DNA from: a virus
Lineage: Duplodnaviria > Caudoviricetes
Length of the DNA stretch: 64,000 nt
Direction: 5' to 3' (one strand)
IMG/VR virus record: IMGVR_UViG_2522572155_000001
Location: 64,001 to 128,000 of that record
Position numbers and translations under genes: made by a program. Shown here one piece after another: positions 13,840 to 19,638 of this stretch. Position 1 is the first letter of the stretch, and each line of letters opens with the position of its first letter. A model generated the notes under the pieces. The model was not told the origin of the DNA and ran no database searches. It was given only the letters and a program-made list of their open reading frames with translations.

Positions 13840-13874
13840 GTCTATCCGTTACGACTTAGGTCGCGCCCGAAAAG

Positions 13875-13947
13875 TGGCTCTAGCAGGAGTCGAACCTGCG
13901 GCCTCTCCCTTATGAGGGGATCGCTCTGGCCTCTGAGCTATAGAGCC
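13875..13947 (-). tRNA. tRNA-CAT (elongator Met or Ile2)
   Basis: Cloverleaf GGCTCTA...TAGAGCC-A; loop CT-CAT-AA. Confidence 0.9.
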
Positions 13948-13953
13948 GGTGAG

Positions 13954-14025
13954 AGCCGCGTGCGGGACTCGAACCCGCGATGCCTGCTTGGAAGGCAGGA
14001 GTGTTGGCCACTACACCAACGCGGC
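13954..14025 (-). tRNA. tRNA-Gly(TCC)
   Basis: Cloverleaf; CCTGC-CTTCCAA-GCAGG. Confidence 0.92.
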
Positions 14026-14136
14026 GTGCAGAGAAACGGTGCTCTGATGCACCAGTTTCGCCTCGCGAGATTCTTACCTCCCGCGCCCTTCGGAAGAGGT
14101 GAAGGTCACCATCCATCTACCCGAAAGGGAAACATC

Positions 14137-14379
14137 ATGTCTCAGGTTGTCAAGCTCGACAGTCGCACGTTCGTAGCTGTCCCACAGCTAGCAATCGGCG
14201 CCCATACCATCGACGGATACGTGTTCGGCGGGATGCCGTACTACAACCCGGCGCCGGACTCCATTAGCGCCGTCACGATTTGGTGGAAGCTACTCGCGGA
14301 CCCGAGCTACGCGTCGTTGCCGCCGGTCACGTCGATCAGCGTGGAGACCACGGTCTCCGGTACCGTCAACCCGGTCTAG
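14137..14379 (+). CDS. Hypothetical protein, antisense to the tRNA array
   Basis: 80 aa from ATG 14137 with SD-like GAAAGGGA. Confidence 0.6.
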   Translation: MSQVVKLDSRTFVAVPQLAIGAHTIDGYVFGGMPYYNPAPDSISAVTIWWKLLADPSYASLPPVTSISVETTVSGTVNPV

Positions 14380-14579
14380 GAGAAGATCCGAGCGATCTGC
14401 TCGTGCGTCGCTCCCTGGGCGAGATAGCGACGCACGTCGTGGTGACTGAGGGCGAAGCCGTCCAAGCCCTTTGCATCCACGAGGCTCATCACCTGGTCGT
14501 CAACGAAGCCGAGCGAGCGAAACGTCTCGCTACGGTACGCCCTGATCTTGTCACCATTGAGGTCGGTGGTACCTGCCAT
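14376..14579 (-). CDS. Hypothetical protein
   Basis: 67 aa; SD GGGAG. Confidence 0.6.
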   Translation of the reverse strand: MAGTTDLNGDKIRAYRSETFRSLGFVDDQVMSLVDAKGLDGFALSHHDVRRYLAQGATHEQIARIFS

Positions 14580-14665
14580 TCTAAGCTCCCTATCAGAATC
14601 GAACTGATTTCCCGGGGTTACAAGGCCCGTGCATCTCCATCAATGCTTAGGGAGCGGGACGAGCC

Positions 14666-15199
14666 CTACTTCCTCGGGCTCTTCTTGTGTCGATGCAAGC
14701 GAGAAGCATGCGCGTTGAGTCGCCTGCGGGCGAGCTTCGCCGGGCTTGCTGCGAAGTTCACGTGGTGAGCCTCGGAGGCCGTGTGATACGGCTGGTGCAC
14801 CTTGTAGCCGTAGCGATGGAGCACGCGGAGTAGGTCATCCCATTCCGTAACGTCGAGACCTAGCTGATAGGGCCGGAGCTTGTGCCCGACGTGGCCGATG
14901 GTGCCATCTCCGAGCAGCAGGTGGGAGCCCTGGGTCGGTGGGTTCGCGGGCAGGAACCCGGGCAGGCGCTTCGTCCATCCGTTGAACAGGTACGCCTGGT
15001 CGTGAAGCTTGGTCTTGTGCCTCTTGTTGAACGACTTGATCGTGGATACGCGACGATCTGCCGAGACAAGGTGTCCCTTCCAGCCGTTGTTACGCGCGTC
15101 CTGGAGTGCCCATGCGAGGCCCCGGTAGACGGGCACATTGTCGAACTTGACGATGTGCCACGCCGGGTAGACCGTGCTCAGAAGCGGTAGGCGGCTCAT
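14666..15199 (-). CDS. Putative M15-type zinc peptidoglycan peptidase
   Basis: ANPPTQGSH...GLD...EAHHV fits the SxH..D..ExxH signature. Confidence 0.65.
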   Translation of the reverse strand: MSRLPLLSTVYPAWHIVKFDNVPVYRGLAWALQDARNNGWKGHLVSADRRVSTIKSFNKRHKTKLHDQAYLFNGWTKRLPGFLPANPPTQGSHLLLGDGTIGHVGHKLRPYQLGLDVTEWDDLLRVLHRYGYKVHQPYHTASEAHHVNFAASPAKLARRRLNAHASRLHRHKKSPRK

Positions 15200-15234
15200 G
15201 CCGCTTACGTGAGAGGCTCAACGATGAAGTAAGG

Positions 15235-15512
15235 TCACGCCCTATAGCCAGGATTCTGTCGTGGTCGATCATCTACCTCTGTATCGCGTATCGATACGCG
15301 ATACAGGCCACACCTTTACGTGGTGGCTGCCCTCAACCTTGCTCACCCCTGGTTGCCCTCGGGTGGCTATTGCGAGGTTGCACCCTGCCTCCCCACTGAG
15401 GTTCGAACGGCCGTAAGCCTCCCTCCGGAGGATCAGTATCTGCGACGAGGTTTGCCCCCGCCAGGGTGTCCTGAACTTCCTCTGGCCGAGGCCAGCGATC
15501 GACTAGGCGTGA
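15235..15512 (-). ncRNA. rnpB: RNase P RNA (compact, phage-encoded)
   Basis: CR-I GAGGAAGTTCAGGAC, CR-IV AGATGATCGAC, CR-V ACAGAATCCTGGCTA; P1, P2 (GTCGATC/GATCGAC), P3, 8-bp P4 with bulged U and P5 (CACC/GGTG-CAA) all pair. Confidence 0.88.
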
Positions 15513-15513
15513 G

Positions 15514-15586
15514 AGCCCACGCGGGGATTCGAGCCCCGGACCTCTCCCTTACGAGGGGAGCGCTCTACCTGCTGAGCTACGTGGGC
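15514..15586 (-). tRNA. tRNA-Thr(CGT)
   Basis: Cloverleaf; CTCCC-CTCGTAA-GGGAG; T-loop begins CTC instead of TTC. Confidence 0.88.
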
Positions 15587-15591
15587 GTGCA

Positions 15592-15664
15592 AGCCACCAC
15601 AGGGAGTCGAACCCTGGACCCCTGCCTTACCATGGCAGTGCTCTGTCCTCTGAGCTATGGCGGC
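15592..15664 (-). tRNA. tRNA-Thr(GGT)
   Basis: Cloverleaf; CTGCC-ATGGTAA-GGCAG. Confidence 0.9.
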
Positions 15665-15667
15665 GTA

Positions 15668-15739
15668 AGGGGTATGTGGGAATCGAACCCACCTTTGCGA
15701 CATGGCAAGCCACCGTAATAGCCGATATACGAATACCCC
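15668..15739 (-). tRNA. tRNA-Gly(GCC)
   Basis: Cloverleaf; GTGGC-TTGCCAT-GTCGC. Confidence 0.8.
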
Positions 15740-15753
15740 TTGTCTACTGCTAG

Positions 15754-15822
15754 CGCCCCAACGAGGAATCGAACCTCGCATCTCGGATTCGAAGTCCAAG
15801 CGCCAGACACACTGGCAAGGGC
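15754..15822 (-). tRNA. tRNA-Arg(TCG), aberrant D-arm
   Basis: Good T-arm and anticodon arm TTGGA-CTTCGAA-TCCGA; weak acceptor stem, non-canonical D-arm. Confidence 0.65.
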
Positions 15823-15827
15823 GGAAG

Positions 15828-15900
15828 TGCCCCCTACTGGATTCGAACCAGTGACCTCGGCCGTCGCAGGGCCGCGCTCTATCCACTGAGCTAAGAGGGC
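15828..15900 (-). tRNA. tRNA-Arg(GCG)
   Basis: Cloverleaf; CGGCC-CTGCGAC-GGCCG. Confidence 0.9.
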
Positions 15901-15937
15901 AGAGGGTGGGGTCACACACCGCTAGGACCCCACCCTG

Positions 15938-16534
15938 CTACTGATCGAACCGGCCTTCGAGCCAGTCCTTTACGAGGCGAGCCTCGTATACCTGGTCATC
16001 GCCTTCCGCGAGCAATTCGATGATCTTCGGGTGCTCGCGACGAAGCTGTTCCAGGAGGCGACGGGCGTTCGCCCGTTCCTCCTGCGTGAGGTACCCCACG
16101 ATCGAGACGGTGTTATCTCTGTCGTGGAGGTCACGGTGGCAGTCGATGCACACAGGGATTGTGCACCGTGACCGGGCGGCGACCTGTACGTAGTTGGATA
16201 GCTCCCGCATCATCCAACGGTTGACGTAGTGGTGCCTCGTGGAGTCCCCAGGACGGCCGCAGCAGCGACATTCAGGCTGAACCTGTCTCAGCGCTCTGTA
16301 GGCGTTCCTGCGCTCTACGATCTCGGCCGGGGGAGTACCCTGGTCTAGGGCATCACGCAGAGCCTCCACGATTTGCCCTTGCGTCGGGTGCGTATCGAGC
16401 AAGTCGTCAAGCTCGATCCCCGTCACCGTGGTGAGGAGTTCAAGCTGCTCGTGCGTTGCCTTGCGGCCATTGGCCGAAGCGTCGTACCACCAGGTGTCCC
16501 CGGTGGGGAGAGTGATGGGACGGGCGCGTGACAT
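15938..16534 (-). CDS. HNH-family endonuclease-like protein
   Basis: CRCC...TRHH...IPVCIDCHRDLH zinc/HNH pattern. Confidence 0.7.
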   Translation of the reverse strand: MSRARPITLPTGDTWWYDASANGRKATHEQLELLTTVTGIELDDLLDTHPTQGQIVEALRDALDQGTPPAEIVERRNAYRALRQVQPECRCCGRPGDSTRHHYVNRWMMRELSNYVQVAARSRCTIPVCIDCHRDLHDRDNTVSIVGYLTQEERANARRLLEQLRREHPKIIELLAEGDDQVYEARLVKDWLEGRFDQ

Positions 16535-16551
16535 TGTTCCTCACTGGTTAG

Positions 16552-16624
16552 TGCCGCGTACGGGAATCGAACCCGTGTTACCTACGTGAGAGGCAGGCGT
16601 CCTGGTCCACTAGACGAACGCGGC
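16552..16624 (-). tRNA. tRNA-Glu(CTC)
   Basis: Cloverleaf; CCTGC-CTCTCAC-GTAGG. Confidence 0.9.
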
Positions 16625-16632
16625 AGGTGGAG

Positions 16633-16707
16633 GGCGACCAGCGGGATTCGAACCCGTCGCTGCTGGAGTCACAGTCCAGAGTGCTAACCGCTGACACTAT
16701 GGCCGCC
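16633..16707 (-). tRNA. tRNA-His(GTG)
   Basis: Cloverleaf with G-1:C73; CTGGA-CTGTGAC-TCCAG. Confidence 0.9.
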
Positions 16708-16713
16708 ATGAAG

Positions 16714-16784
16714 CTGGGGAGCAAGGATTTGAACCTCAACTAACGGGGCCAAAACCCGTCGTGCTGCCGTTACACCACTCCCCA
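16714..16784 (-). tRNA. tRNA-Gln(TTG)
   Basis: Cloverleaf; ACGGG-TTTTGGC-CCCGT. Confidence 0.9.
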
Positions 16785-16798
16785 GTGGTTACTGCTGA

Positions 16799-16872
16799 TA
16801 GCGGGAGGAGGATTTGAACCTCCGACCTCCAGGTTATGAGCCTAGCGAGCTACCTGACTGCTCCATCCCGCA
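16799..16872 (-). tRNA. tRNA-fMet(CAT)
   Basis: Initiator-type body TGCGGGATGGAGCAG...CCCGCTA with 1:72 mismatch. Confidence 0.88.
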
Positions 16873-16887
16873 TGGGTGAACTGCAAG

Positions 16888-16962
16888 TACCCTCGCTCGG
16901 ATTCGAACCGAGACATGAACGGTGTTTGAAACCGCTACCTCTGCCAATTGGGCTACGAGGGC
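16888..16962 (-). tRNA. tRNA-Leu(CAA), short variable region
   Basis: Cloverleaf; GCGGT-TTCAAAC-ACCGT; 75 nt. Confidence 0.82.
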
Positions 16963-16963
16963 A

Positions 16964-17035
16964 TAGGGCGACGGAGAATCGAACTCCGGCTACGGGGGTG
17001 AAAACCCAGCGGTCTGACCACTAACCTACCGCCCC
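16964..17035 (-). tRNA. tRNA-Glu(TTC)
   Basis: Cloverleaf; loop TT-TTC-AC. Confidence 0.82.
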
Positions 17036-17047
17036 AGGTACTTCGAG

Positions 17048-17122
17048 TGCACCCACGAGGATTTGAACCTCGGACCTCCGCCTTATCAGAGCGGCGCTCT
17101 AACCAAACTGAGCTATGAGTGC
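17048..17122 (-). tRNA. tRNA-Ile(GAT)
   Basis: Cloverleaf; CCGCT-CTGATAA-GGCGG. Confidence 0.92.
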
Positions 17123-17126
17123 AGAG

Positions 17127-17198
17127 TGGAACGCCCCGGAATCGAACCGGGTACACCGCGAGTTTCAGCCGCGTGCTCTACCGATGAGCTAGCGCTCC
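17127..17198 (-). tRNA. tRNA-Phe(GAA)
   Basis: Cloverleaf; CGCGG-CTGAAAC-TCGCG. Confidence 0.9.
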
Positions 17199-17201
17199 AG
17201 G

Positions 17202-17294
17202 TCAGGCCACGAGGCAAAGGGGGAGCCTCGTCTGAGCGGCGTCATGGGACATCCCGGACCGCCGCTAGCGTCTCGCGATCCCCTCGTGACCTGA
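17202..17294 (-). ncRNA. Unassigned structured RNA A
   Basis: Termini pair (TCAGGTCACGAGG/CCTCGTGGCCTGA); inner stem AGCGGCG/CGCCGCT; fills the tRNA spacer. Confidence 0.5.
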
Positions 17295-17296
17295 AG

Positions 17297-17369
17297 TGGA
17301 GCCTAAGGGGTTCGAACCCTTCACCTCCTGCTTGCAAGGCAGGCGCTCTCCCAACTGAGCTAAGGCCCC
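17297..17369 (-). tRNA. tRNA-Ala(TGC)
   Basis: Cloverleaf with G3:U70. Confidence 0.94.
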
Positions 17370-17530
17370 ATGTCGTCGCCAAACGATTCCCACTTGGCGA
17401 TTGCACCATCTTCGAGATAGACGCGCCACCAGCGCATCCTCACGATCCTTCCGTGCGTATCCCATTCGACCCACACGTGGAACTGAATTCGGTCGTACGT
17501 GGGATGGTCGATGACCACCATCTGCTCCAT
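17360..17530 (-). CDS. Small hypothetical protein (56 aa) inside the tRNA array
   Basis: MEQMVVIDHPTYDRIQFHVWVEWDTHGRIVRMRWWRVYLEDGAIAKWESFGDDMGP; fills the spacer; stop lies within tRNA-Ala. Confidence 0.4.
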   Translation of the reverse strand: MEQMVVIDHPTYDRIQFHVWVEWDTHGRIVRMRWWRVYLEDGAIAKWESFGDDMGP

Positions 17531-17547
17531 GCACAAACGTAGTCGGA

Positions 17548-17634
17548 CGGAGAGAGGGAGATTCGAACTCCCGAGACACTTTCGTGTCTACCGTCTTTCC
17601 AGGACGGGCCGTTCAGCCACTCCGGCACCTCTCC
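17548..17634 (-). tRNA. tRNA-Ser(GGA)
   Basis: Cloverleaf with long variable arm. Confidence 0.93.
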
Positions 17635-17637
17635 AAG

Positions 17638-17721
17638 CGGAAGCAGAGGGAATCGAACCCCCGACGCTGTCACACGCAGCCGGGTTCAAACCGGTGTCCT
17701 CGTCCATGCCGGACTACTTCC
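17638..17721 (-). tRNA. tRNA-Ser(TGA)
   Basis: Long variable arm, atypical D-arm; loop TT-TGA-AC. Confidence 0.8.
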
Positions 17722-17724
17722 GTA

Positions 17725-17796
17725 AGGCGGGGAGGGGAATCGAACCCCTGTAACGCGCTTTGCAGGCGCGCACATAAGCCACTCTGTCACCCCGCC
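17725..17796 (-). tRNA. tRNA-Cys(GCA)
   Basis: Cloverleaf, U73. Confidence 0.92.
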
Positions 17797-17852
17797 GGGT
17801 GTGGACAAGCAGCAGTTTAGCAGTAGCGAATGCCCTGCACGCTACAGATAAG

Positions 17853-17924
17853 CTGGCCCGGGAGGATTCGAACCCCCGACATCCCGAGTAACAGTCGGGC
17901 GTTCTGCCACTGAACTACGGGCCA
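17853..17924 (-). tRNA. tRNA-Asn(GTT)
   Basis: Cloverleaf; CCCGA-CTGTTAC-TCGGG. Confidence 0.92.
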
Positions 17925-17943
17925 GTAGTTAGGTGCTGGTAGG

Positions 17944-18017
17944 TGGACCGTCCGGGATTCGAACCCGGATAGCAAGGGTAAGAGCCAAGTATGTTATCCA
18001 GTTGACATCAACGGTCC
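17944..18017 (-). tRNA. tRNA-Lys(CTT)
   Basis: Cloverleaf; anticodon stem CTTGG/CCTTG has two U-U mismatches. Confidence 0.78.
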
Positions 18018-18021
18018 GATA

Positions 18022-18109
18022 CGGAAGGAGAGGGAGTCGAACCCTCGGTACCCGGTTAGGGCACACTCGCTTAGCAGGCGAGCCTATTCGGCCTCTCTAG
18101 CATCCTTCC
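18022..18109 (-). tRNA. tRNA-Ser(GCT)
   Basis: Cloverleaf with long variable arm. Confidence 0.92.
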
Positions 18110-18111
18110 AG

Positions 18112-18183
18112 TGCCCCCGAGAGGACTCGAACCTCCAGCCTAACCCTTAGGAGGGGTTCGCTCTTCCGTTGAGCTACAGGGGC
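18112..18183 (-). tRNA. tRNA-Arg(CCT)
   Basis: Cloverleaf; AACCC-CTCCTAA-GGGTT. Confidence 0.9.
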
Positions 18184-18191
18184 GAAGATTG

Positions 18192-18322
18192 CCCACCAAG
18201 GCTTGTCCGCTTGCCTGTCCTCCGTGCGGAGGAGATCGGTCCTGACCGCAGACATGTATCCGATCTTTCAGTCTGCGGGTAGGCGGTTTCGCCTGGCTCG
18301 TAACCGATCCAGGTCGGGTGGG
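18192..18322 (-). ncRNA. Unassigned multibranch structured RNA B
   Basis: Nested helices CCCACC/GGTGGG, CCTG/CAGG, GATCGGT/ACCGATC, AGGCG/CGCCT, CCGCAGAC/GTCTGCGG, TCCTCC/GGAGGA. Confidence 0.55.
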
Positions 18323-18328
18323 ACTTAG

Positions 18329-18709
18329 TGGAGGCGCCGGGAGTCGAACCCGGGTGTTCCGTGCGCGTATCTCGCCAGTCTTTCAGCAGCTTAGGCCGTA
18401 GGTGGCCATCCACAATCTAAGGACACAGGCTAGCTGTGTCTCCACCACCTGCTCGATACGGTCGAGCAGGAAACCGGCCCTCCGTTTAGGAGGGCGTCAC
18501 CCGGAGTTCTGGTCCTAGGCCCCGGGAGCCCGCGCCGTAGGTTACGCTACGGCTAGAAGTGCTTCCAGTTCGTCCTCGACGGTCATAGTGACCTCGGACG
18601 GCATGGAAGCGATGATGTTCTCGCCAGTTATGGCTTGTGGCAGGTAGGTGTGCCGACCGCTGCACTGCTCGGGACTGCATCTCACGGAGTCGAAGCCATG
18701 TTCGCCCCC
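18329..18709 (-). ncRNA. ssrA: tmRNA
   Basis: 5' GGGGGCGAA..GG..TTCGAC, 3' T-arm GGTTCGACTCC and CGCCTCCA with G3:U70; ATAACT-G resume context; tag ORF 18625-18542 GENIIASMPSEVTMTVEDELEALLAVA*. Confidence 0.93.
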
Positions 18710-18713
18710 AGGA

Positions 18714-18778
18714 GGTTCGCCACTCCGACCACCCTTCGCGGGTGGACCCGGAGCGCTCGAAGTCTCCGGCTGCGAACC
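18714..18778 (-). ncRNA. Unassigned structured RNA C
   Basis: Closing stem GGTTCGC/GCGAACC; inner CGCTCCG/CGGAGTG and CCACCC/GGGTGG. Confidence 0.4.
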
Positions 18779-18779
18779 A

Positions 18780-18852
18780 TGTACCCCACAGGGCTCGAAC
18801 CTGTGACCTCGTGCCTGTCAAGCACGTGCTCTCCCAACTGAGCTAGGGGTAC
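18780..18852 (-). tRNA. tRNA-Val(GAC)
   Basis: Cloverleaf; CGTGC-TTGACAG-GCACG. Confidence 0.92.
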
Positions 18853-18855
18853 GGA

Positions 18856-18928
18856 TGCGCGGTGACGGACTCGAACCGCCGACCTACCGGGTGTAAACCG
18901 GTCGCTCTCCCAACTGAGCTAACCGCGC
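18856..18928 (-). tRNA. tRNA-Val(TAC)
   Basis: Cloverleaf; ACCGG-TTTACAC-CCGGT. Confidence 0.93.
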
Positions 18929-18937
18929 GAGGTATAG

Positions 18938-19009
18938 CAGGGGATACAGGACTCGAACCCGTAGCCTCGGTTTTGGAGACCGAGATGTTCGCCTTTACAC
19001 CAATCCCCT
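18938..19009 (-). tRNA. tRNA-Trp(CCA)
   Basis: Cloverleaf; CTCGG(T)-CTCCAAA-(A)CCGAG. Confidence 0.92.
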
Positions 19010-19014
19010 GGGAG

Positions 19015-19088
19015 CGGTAGTGACGGGGCTCGAACCCGCGACCTCTGCCGTGACAGGGCAGCGCTCTAACCAACTGAGCTACACCACC
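19015..19088 (-). tRNA. tRNA-Asp(GTC)
   Basis: Cloverleaf; CTGCC-CTGTCAC-GGCAG. Confidence 0.94.
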
Positions 19089-19099
19089 AGGTACTTCTA

Positions 19100-19174
19100 T
19101 CAGGATGAGAGGATTCGAACCTCCGACTTCTCGCTCCCGAAGCGAGCGCTCTGGCCAGACTGAGCTACACCCTG
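19100..19174 (-). tRNA. tRNA-Pro(CGG)
   Basis: Cloverleaf; CTCGC-TTCGGGA-GCGAG. Confidence 0.93.
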
Positions 19175-19186
19175 TTACCGCGTAAG

Positions 19187-19268
19187 TACACCCGGAGAGA
19201 TTCGAACTCTCAATCCCGAAGGCACTGGTTCCTAAGACCAGCGTGTATGCCAGTTCCACCACGGGTGC
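19187..19268 (-). tRNA. tRNA-Leu(TAG)
   Basis: Cloverleaf with variable arm. Confidence 0.92.
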
Positions 19269-19271
19269 ATA

Positions 19272-19337
19272 AGCGACGAGGCCGAGGGAGGGAAGGGACC
19301 TGGAGGTGCAAACCATGAACCAGGGGGCCTCGTCGCT
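19272..19337 (-). ncRNA. Unassigned structured RNA D
   Basis: 12-bp perfect closing stem AGCGACGAGGCC/GGCCTCGTCGCT, inner CCTGG/CCAGG, pyrimidine bulge TCCCTTCCCTCCCTC. Confidence 0.5.
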
Positions 19338-19339
19338 AG

Positions 19340-19420
19340 CGCGCCCTCAAGGAATCGAACCTCGCCAGCAATTGCAACCGGGTTACAGCCGGTCGGGAAC
19401 TCCAGTTCCCCATAGAGCGC
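19340..19420 (-). tRNA. tRNA-Tyr(GTA), atypical D-arm
   Basis: ACCGG-CTGTAAC-CCGGT; variable arm; 6-bp D-stem GGGAAC-TGGA-GTTCCC. Confidence 0.8.
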
Positions 19421-19425
19421 GAATG

Positions 19426-19530
19426 ACGCAGGCTCACTGATTCGGGCGCGACCACGGAGCAACTAGACCCCAGCTAGGCTTGGGGGCCATGCGGTATTTC
19501 ACCGCTGCACTCAGGAGGATTACCCTGCGT
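19426..19530 (-). ncRNA. Unassigned structured RNA E
   Basis: Closing stem ACGCAGG/CCTGCGT; hairpins GCGGT-GAAAT-ACCGC and GGCCCC/GGGGTC. Confidence 0.4.
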
Positions 19531-19566
19531 TGAGACGTTGATATGTACCGGTGTCTCAGACCGGAG

Positions 19567-19638
19567 TGTCCTCCAAGGGACTCGAACCCTTGACGATGCC
19601 CTTAGAAGGGGCGCGCTCTGCCGCTGAGCTAGGAGGAC
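19567..19638 (-). tRNA. tRNA-Arg(TCT)
   Basis: Cloverleaf; loop CT-TCT-AA; first tRNA of the operon. Confidence 0.9.

Follow-up and report, generated by a model that had tools for sequence, protein, structure and literature searches.

What does an RNA that resembles the RNA of ribonuclease P (RNase P) do inside the tRNA array of a phage, and what could it recognize with a specificity domain (S-domain) of only 74 nt? These questions are raised by a 64,000-nt stretch of DNA, called the window here, that spans positions 64,001 to 128,000 of the IMG/VR virus record IMGVR_UViG_2522572155_000001 and carries an RNase P-like RNA of 282 nt on its minus strand. RNase P RNA is a catalytic RNA that removes the 5' leaders of tRNA precursors, alone at high salt or together with the protein RnpA. 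A preliminary description of the locus had noted a shrunken S-domain and a long palindrome and proposed relaxed or altered specificity and possibly a new structural subtype. We find that the window RNA is homologous to the type A RNase P RNAs of bacteria, that the elements of its catalytic domain are all intact, and that it is a structural subtype outside Rfam coverage, with a reduced and remodelled S-domain. Taken as a whole, the evidence is best explained if the gene encodes a phage RNase P RNA, which we consider probable.

The window encodes a homologue of bacterial type A RNase P RNA

With cmscan at E-value thresholds, the bacterial RNase P class A model RF00010 aligns to positions 15229-15514 of the minus strand over model positions 1-367, with scores of 40.2 and 39.4 bits and E-values of 1e-10 (2-kb search) and 4e-11 (small searches). 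This bacterial model is the best and only Rfam match of the RNA. The scores lie under the 100-bit gathering score of RF00010, so by score alone the RNA does not qualify as type A. At Rfam gathering thresholds the window yields tRNAs and the transfer-messenger RNA (tmRNA) alone, with RNase P RNA unlisted; standard annotation overlooks the gene because it reaches 40 bits against a threshold of 100. The predicted fold beats 200 of 200 shuffled sequences (z = -4.75). P1 starts at 15512, 2 nt past the discriminator base of tRNA-Thr(CGU) at 15514, and 31 nt separate the 3' end from an open reading frame (ORF) of 177 aa downstream. The elements of the catalytic domain are listed below, where CR stands for conserved region and the family is the set of related phage RNAs described in the next section.

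15231-15512 (-): whole RNase P-like RNA, 282 nt, from the RF00010 match, fold z and tRNA coordinates
15506-15512 (-): P1 5' strand UCACGCC; partner GGCGUGA at 15235-15241; double changes at 7/7 pairs in 30 family RNAs
15497-15503 (-): P2 5' strand GUCGAUC; partner GAUCGAC at 15264-15270; 7/7 pairs compensated, 89% of cells paired
15482-15495 (-): P3, a very short 5-bp hairpin, CUGGC-CUCG-GCCAG, from sequence and cmscan alignment
15468-15482 (-): CR-I and P4 5' strand, GAGGAAGUUCAGGAC, bulged U retained; P4 pairs 15477-15469 with 15253-15246
15462-15468 (-): P5 5' strand CACCCUG; partner CAGGGUG at 15381-15387; unbroken 7 bp without J5/7
15378-15380 (-): J5/15, CAA, which follows P5 in 25/26 anchored P5 helices
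15331-15377 (-): P15 (CCUC/GAGG), internal loop L15 (GGU at 15336-15338) and P16/17 hairpin (15341-15367)
15271-15278 (-): CR-IV, AGGUAGAU, fits AGNNNNAU; AG and AU columns invariant in alignment A1
15245-15259 (-): CR-V and P4 3' strand, ACAGAAUCCUGGCUA, from cmscan, sequence and covariation count

All pairs of these helices are formed: 7/7 in P1, 7/7 in P2, 5/5 in P3, 7/7 in P5, 4/4 in P15, and all 8 pairs of the long-range helix P4 with its bulged U. L15 also retains the GGU that binds the tRNA 3' end. The consensus strings of Chen and Pace (1997) are reportedly GNAANNUCNGNG for CR-I, AGNNNNAU for CR-IV and ACNNNANNNNGNNUA for CR-V; the window RNA reads GGAAGUUCAGGA (with A, not G, at the last position), AGGUAGAU and ACAGAAUCCUGGCUA, and the cmscan alignment agrees. 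We take the CAA of J5/15 to stand at the position of E. coli A248. Every nucleotide that is invariant in the family (GAGGAAGUUC, the L15 GGU, the GC that follows P15, AG..AU of CR-IV, and CR-V) is kept. As the preliminary description stated, P5 runs on as a single helix, CACCCUG (15468-15462) with CAGGGUG (15387-15381), and P6 lacks its usual 5' strand because no J5/7 is present. Its statement that there is no P19 also stands; J2/4 is just CACGACAGAA.

The host carries its own gene. Its rnpB, at L001:1501-1823 (-) (G000:C3:274685-275007), scores 246 bits and is canonical type A with a standard P4 and a full P7-P14 S-domain that contains ACAGAAAAG and UUGAAAU; its P5 encloses 161 nt, and it is without P18 entirely. 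Compared with the host P4 strands, GAGGAAAGUCCGGA and ACAGAAUCCGGCUUA, four pairs of the window P4 are altered on both sides, which argues that the phage gene is no recent copy of the host gene.

Related RNAs lie in phage tRNA arrays

To collect relatives, we used the P4 motif pair GAGGAAGTTCAGG ... ACAGAATCCTGG as an exact-match search key. The pair occurs in 18 IMG/VR contigs (spacing 121-299 nt) and 16 metagenome contigs (181-239 nt), which give 28 distinct RNAs besides the window RNA. The count rises to 30 with the window RNA and a copy in the cultured Stenotrophomonas phage vB_SmaS-DLP_6, and to at least 32 with copies in the published uncultured phage genomes LR756501 (735 kb) and LR756502 (642 kb). 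The copies in all three of these phages are unannotated; that of DLP_6 sits in a tRNA array, between a coding sequence and tRNA-Arg. They lie at L228:2470-2700 (KU682439.2, ~105790-106000), L239:~1480-1700 (LR756501.1) and L240:~1480-1660 (LR756502.1), and CR-V of LR756501 reads ACAGGA where the other family RNAs read ACAGAA. Among 50,697 GenBank phage records, blastn gave no match for the window RNA, L203, L211, L212 or L213; mini forms of the family matched DLP_6, and L204 matched huge phages.

In 185,579 species-representative genomes, the motif pair was found nowhere at 181-239 nt and once at 241-299 nt. The lone match is a 20.7-kb scaffold (L227, JALOAT010000060.1) of a gammaproteobacterial metagenome-assembled genome; a 455-kb IMG/VR phage contig (L209) carries an identical RNase P-like core, so that the scaffold is probably mis-binned phage DNA. 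The family is thus found in phage DNA, and nearly always co-oriented inside tRNA arrays: tRNA genes occur in the fetched stretch at 19 of 20 related loci, mostly as same-strand arrays. Such an RNA is absent from all 80 viral loci picked solely for ribonucleotide reductase, and only one family RNA occurs in the host genome, within the prophage that contains the window.

The preliminary description had named a covariation alignment of homologues as a check, and in our comparison P1, P2, P4, P5 and P15 covary. In an alignment of 30 sequences (A1), P1, P2 and P4 together are 88% paired, and changes on both sides are seen at 16 of 22 pairs. They have a covariation score of 0.454, a value that none of 500 shuffles reaches (0.130 ± 0.015 after shuffling), while slid partners give no more than 0.12. 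We compared P5 and P15 by anchoring, since MAFFT misaligned both in the window RNA. P5 anchored between CR-I and the CAA of J5/15 has 13 distinct sequences that are always complementary, although the helix listed for L209 among the 26 of this search is a mis-call. P15 is formed by about 9 different complementary pairs across the family, and the L15 GGU and the GC after P15 are invariant in 30/30 RNAs. In the three phages found without the exact key, the middle of P4 reads GCG/CGC or AAC/GUU instead of the AGG/CCU seen elsewhere in the family; P4 therefore covaries when the search is freed from exact sequence.

RF00010 scores form a continuum across the family (191, 191, 144, 100, 99.9, 94, 88, 80, 73, 66, 43 and 40 bits). 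In the top-scoring members a P7-P12 S-domain with ACAGAGA and GUGAAAC can be recognised, and across the family P5 encloses anywhere from 36 to 140 nt. The window RNA shares what defines the family, namely a P4 of the form GUUC-NNN-A / U-N'N'N'-GGC, a co-oriented position in a phage tRNA array and a shortened S-domain.

Two side observations concern individual members. In the smallest (L206, L207, L113, L157 and L228), the strand from P5 to the S-module has 7-8 nt complementary to the P16/17 loop, and these covary (by eye: GCCGAGU/AUUCGGC, GCAAGGGA/UCUCUUGC, GUGAGAA/UUCUCAC); this pairing looks like a long P6 pseudoknot. In L221:594-825 (+), an expanded S-module hairpin holds a tRNA-like T arm (GGGUUCGAUCCUGGG), and an ARAGORN 'tmRNA' call at 667-937 overlaps the RNase P-like RNA.

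One close relative shares the layout of the window RNA

The sole close relative of the window RNA is L203, from a metagenomic phage (IMGVR_UViG_3300014031_000065, 60% G+C), whose RNA comes after a tmRNA-like 3' end. The two RNAs are 61% identical overall, and no protein of the 5.3-kb L203 locus is detectably shared with the window genome. P1, P2, P3 and P5 differ between them through compensatory changes, two of these in P5. The unpaired motifs GGGGC-AA-CC, AGAUACUGA, GAGGGAG and GAACCUCAG are common to both, and P5 encloses 74 nt in the window RNA and 77 nt in L203. L203 reads UGA where J5/15 is CAA in other family RNAs. A scan for the S-domain motifs AGATACTGA..TGAACCTCAG gave chance matches only, beyond L203. 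The shared layout with compensation in P5, together with a compact module found in the wider family, bears out the proposal that the reduced, remodelled S-domain marks a structural subtype.

The reduced S-domain contains a small module with one T-loop-like strand

We then resolved the S-domain into the following elements.

15388-15461 (-): reduced S-domain, 74 nt, enclosed by P5; host equivalent 161 nt; not aligned by RF00010
15445-15461 (-): hairpin S1 with a GCAAA pentaloop (GNRA-like), from the minimum-energy fold; GGG-GCCAA-CCC at the equivalent place in L203
15433-15442 (-): conserved single strand CAGAUACUGA, possible degenerate CR-II; AGAUACUGA identical in L203, whose strand reads CAGAGAUACUGA
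15398-15425 (-): compact S-module with helix X (GAGG/CCUC), GA, hairpin GGCUUACGGCC and GUUCGAA, from alignment A3 of 14 phage RNAs
15402-15408 (-): GUUCGAA strand with a T-loop-like U-N-N-N-A pentad (U at 15406, A at 15402); U and A invariant in 14/14

The full type A arrangement, with P7-P12 and a CR-II/CR-III T-loop pair, is absent; cmscan skips the region, and what stands in place of the pair is a single T-loop-like strand with a degenerate CAGAUA. The preliminary description had given the S-domain about 74 nt and seen no clear ACAGAAA/TGAAA pair in it. Indeed, exactly 74 nt are enclosed, and the exact pair ACAGAAA/GUGAAA was not found there, where only the weak look-alikes CAGAUA (15442-15437) and UUCGAA (15407-15402) occur. 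The minimum-energy fold of the S-domain consists, in order, of S1, a short single strand, an outer helix CCUCC/GGGGA and the inner module, which itself runs GAGG, GA, hairpin GGCUUACGGCC, GUUCGAA, CCUC.

The module recurs in other phages. An automatic search for it was tightened and its result curated before alignment A3, in which columns G4, A6, G7, C17, U20, A24 and C25 are invariant across the 14 phage RNAs. Helix X occurs as GUAG/CUAC, GUGG/CCAC, GAGG/CCUC, AUGG/CCAU and GUUG/CAAC. MAFFT sets the GUUCGAA strand beneath the CR-III sequence GUGAAAC of near-canonical family members.

A U and an A three bases apart have the spacing of a T-loop. The T-loop-like GTTCGAAC that the preliminary description had reported lies at 15402-15409 (-), within the U-N-N-N-A strand of the S-module. 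Neither it nor the pair of hairpins in the P18 region is peculiar to this RNA; both proved to be features of the family. Read from sequence, the phage U-N-N-N-A strand may adopt a T-loop fold, and GTTCGAAC is probably a surviving elbow-recognition element and no oddity. A weaker suggestion is that CR-II survives in degenerate form as the CAGAUACUGA strand, which reads CAGAGAUACUGA in L203.

A P6-like contact is a further candidate. The first four bases of the P16/17 loop (15350-15360), GAGG, are complementary to the CCUC in the 3' strand of S1 (15447-15450), and L203 has GAAG/CUUC. This 4-bp pairing shows one compensatory change relative to L203, with the register shifted between the two RNAs, and is too weak to call.

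The palindrome is a lengthened hairpin of the P18 region

Two hairpins between P15 and CR-IV make up the P18 region, which spans about 50 nt (15327-15279).

15307-15327 (-): hairpin 1, GCCAC...GUGGC, loop around GUAAA, from the fold; GGCGG...CCGCC with a GCAA loop in L203
15279-15306 (-): hairpin 2, a perfect 12-bp stem with a UCGA loop, forming a perfect 28-nt palindrome; cmscan aligns it to P18

Both hairpins, including the palindrome, had been correctly described. Because the UCGA loop is itself self-complementary, the whole of the second hairpin is a perfect palindrome; it is the longest perfect one in the window, where the next has 14 nt, and about 2e-4 of its kind are expected by chance in 64 kb. 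A P18 with a GNRA loop that docks in P8 is not present, as the loop of the palindrome is UCGA, that of the first hairpin is GUAAA, and P8 is absent. In L203, both P18-region hairpins are capped by GCAA.

Across 30 family RNAs, the P18 region lacks a hairpin in 15 (2-3 nt), has one in 3 and has two in 12 (31-52 nt). In the 11 other RNAs of the last group, most second hairpins have stems of 4-6 bp, and GNRA or UUCG loops are frequent; the second hairpin of the window RNA is the longest in the family. These comparisons identify the palindrome as a lengthened family hairpin, at a position where everything from outright deletion to a 50-nt insert is tolerated.

Could the palindrome have a function of its own, as a DNA site for a dimeric protein, a nuclease or recombination, or as an element of RNA dimerisation, rather than serving as a mere P18-type strut? 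It is perfect, unique in the 6.6-Mb genome and roughly double the length of its counterparts in related RNAs, and with 50% G+C it is richer in A+T than the sequence around it. Still, its position is a hairpin site in the 11 other RNAs, and a perfect 12-bp stem needs only a self-complementary 4-nt loop, a 1-in-16 chance, to become a palindrome. We also found no T-run after it and no further copy of it, and it is not conserved in L203, where CACGC-GCAA-GCGUG stands in its place. A separate function is thus quite unlikely.

The genomic setting supplies tRNAs and a host protein

The window corresponds to G000:C5:287233-351232 of a 6.64-Mb genome with 72.5% G+C and lies inside a block of ~165 kb with 62-67% G+C (C5, ~215-380 kb), which we read as a large prophage. 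The G+C content of the block is two-tiered, at about 65% in 215-280 kb and 350-380 kb and about 62% in 280-350 kb. Within the window are genes for DNA polymerase III alpha, a DnaB-type helicase, a primase and ribonucleotide reductase, as well as 31-33 tRNAs and a tmRNA. The only copy of rnpA is in the host chromosome (G000:C2:264872-265198), and there is none in the prophage. If a holoenzyme forms, then, it uses the host protein.

A dedicated protein partner was considered and rejected, since neither flanking ORF has a homologue beside other family RNAs. The 177-aa ORF itself, at 14666-15199 (-), belongs to no Pfam family and has 11 metagenomic homologues at 42-68% identity; its product has no match in IMG/VR.

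The preliminary description had supposed that the phage tRNAs have odd elbows. They do not: the T stems of all 31 are regular (5 bp, with one of 4 bp), 30 of the 31 have T-loops of the TTCRANY type, and all 31 have the GG of the D-loop region. As to their 3' ends, the base after the discriminator is C in about two thirds of the 31, and the next base is T in 27. This recurrent N73-C-U trailer may guide 3' processing.

A proposed phage RNase P lineage and the alternatives to it

How might the window RNA work? The boldest reading, to which we give a probability of roughly 45%, is that large phages hold an RNase P ribozyme lineage of their own, in which the S-domain would have been whittled, independently of archaeal type T, to one stem and one T-loop. 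The window RNA and L203 would be an intermediate subtype with a GNRA-capped hairpin and a CR-II-like strand, active with host RnpA, and maturation of the tRNA array would be independent of the host RNase P RNA. In the more general explanation that we consider probable, a phage RNase P RNA, the RNA would be co-transcribed with the array of 31 tRNAs and the tmRNA and freed by tRNA 3'-end processing. It would bind the only RnpA of the host and process phage pre-tRNAs, adding capacity or autonomy in infection. What is left of the S-domain, a stem whose only T-loop-like strand is GUUCGAA (U-N-N-N-A), would contact the tRNA elbow by stacking, as in the type T model. The extra hairpin with its GNRA-like cap and the CAGAUACUGA strand would be specific to the subtype, whose members known so far are the window RNA and L203. 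The two hairpins of the P18 region would act as peripheral struts, the palindrome being the second strut with its stem extended to 12 bp.

Several points weigh against this main explanation. The Rfam score of the window RNA is far under threshold. The family was gathered by exact P4 motifs, so that the conservation of P4 is partly by construction. The S-module (helix X and hairpin) is 98% paired in the 14 RNAs of A3, with a covariation of 0.518 compared to 0.188, but these pairing statistics are partly circular, as the script selected modules by the complementarity of helix X; the invariant unpaired columns are unaffected. An alternative pairing, ACUGA/UCAGU, competes with helix X. Because only one close relative is known, the structure of the window S-domain rests on thermodynamic folds, few compensatory changes and the shared module. 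Finally, 3' CCA is encoded by 0 of the 31 tRNA genes (13874-19638, -), though the GGU that binds CCA is invariant, which suggests an initial round of 3' trimming and CCA addition, or else another role for the GGU.

The reading in the preliminary description was that the reduced S-domain relaxes or alters specificity, to accommodate phage tRNAs of unusual form or substrates other than tRNA, for example the orphan RNAs of the array. The domain that reads the elbow is indeed shortened to 74 nt, and the array includes spacer RNAs of unknown kind. Against this reading, the T arms and the D-loop-region GG are canonical in 31/31 phage tRNAs, and reduction of the S-domain is family-wide, in phages of 26% to 62% G+C with ordinary tRNA arrays. 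The strict conservation of the T-loop-like pentad argues that elbow recognition is retained, not abandoned, and we regard altered specificity as unlikely. An RNA that is no enzyme at all could act as a decoy, sequestering host RnpA or pre-tRNAs and damping host tRNA maturation to the benefit of the phage. Without an rnpA of the phage, the RNA does have to share or compete for the host protein, and a weak S-domain could mean a poor enzyme. The invariant positions, however, fall in the regions of the active site and of 3'-CCA docking (CR-I, CR-IV, CR-V, the bulged U of P4, the A of J5/15 and the GGU of L15), a set that exceeds what protein binding should need, and a decoy seems very unlikely. 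Least probable of all is that a captured rnpB is decaying in the prophage and has lost its function there. The low Rfam score, the large deletion in the S-domain and the unusually long palindrome would fit such decay, but there are no mismatches in the helices, every family-invariant base is present, and P4 departs from that of the host by paired changes, which speaks against a recent host copy. In addition, L203 has the same architecture with compensatory changes in a locus without a detectable shared protein.

Comparison with known RNase P RNAs

Type A RNAs of RF00010 and the window RNA have the same order of elements (P1-P2-P3-P4-P5-P15-P16/17-P18), the P4 pseudoknot with its bulged U, CR-I, CR-IV and CR-V, the A of J5/15 and the GGU of L15. 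The window RNA differs in having 74 nt in place of P7-P14, no J5/7 strand and four swapped pairs in P4. Its P3 has only 5 bp, an extra hairpin precedes P18, and the P18 loop is UCGA instead of GNRA. Unlike theirs, its gene belongs to a phage and lies within a tRNA array.

The preliminary description aptly drew a comparison with archaeal type T, for whose S-domain the model is one stem bearing one T-loop (UAAAA), CR-II being absent (PMC13462272). The window RNA likewise keeps its catalytic domain, its S-module follows the same design in a stem with a single strand that may form a T-loop, and its CR-II is lost or degenerate. In contrast, type T works with four proteins (Pop5, Rpp30, Rpp29 and L7Ae), whereas the window RNA belongs to a phage of a high-G+C bacterium, with bacterial RnpA or none, and has a bacterial-style P15/L15 and extra S-domain elements. 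No proteins of the type T set are seen next to it, although no search aimed at them was made. The reduction in the phage RNA is parallel to that of type T, with no shared ancestry.

The phage mini RNase P RNAs are like the window RNA in their P4 (GUUCAGG/CCUGGC), invariant core, setting in tRNA arrays and X-GA-hairpin-GUUNNNA module. Compared to these, the window RNA and L203 have about 28 extra nt 5' of the module (S1 and CAGAUACUGA), and they are without the long pairing of J5/7 with the P17 loop (P6) that is seen by eye in the smallest forms. Among bacterial systems, one study describes the catalytic domain alone as still catalytic, with lower efficiency (PMC5839562); those RNAs are laboratory deletions, whereas the window RNA is natural and conserved and retains a small recognition module. 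RNase P RNAs of candidate phyla radiation bacteria also fall under Rfam cut-offs and are without helices such as P12, P13, P14 and P18 (PMC8172020), but each is the sole cellular rnpB of a small genome, whereas the window RNA is an extra phage copy beside a canonical host gene. In the full-text literature, including the P finder paper and a 2024 review of RNase P, we found no published description of a phage-encoded RNase P RNA.

Implications

RNase P RNA is regarded as a cellular gene passed on vertically, and one study counts it with the small number of RNA families whose pattern is mainly vertical (PMC3486863); a lineage borne by viruses would alter that picture. Genes of the family lie under Rfam thresholds and are unannotated even in DLP_6 and in the published 735-kb and 642-kb genomes. 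The window locus adds an intermediate S-domain subtype to this family, ties GTTCGAAC to the family-wide UNNNA module and presents the palindrome as a stretched family hairpin. On a constant catalytic core, S-domains of 140 to 36 nt form a natural reduction series that could serve to test how much of a recognition domain a bacterial-type RNase P needs. If the proposed lineage is real, the phage RNAs would have reached the "single T-loop" solution of type T independently, as its second known instance, and 5' maturation would join tRNAs and tmRNA among the translation functions carried by big phages.

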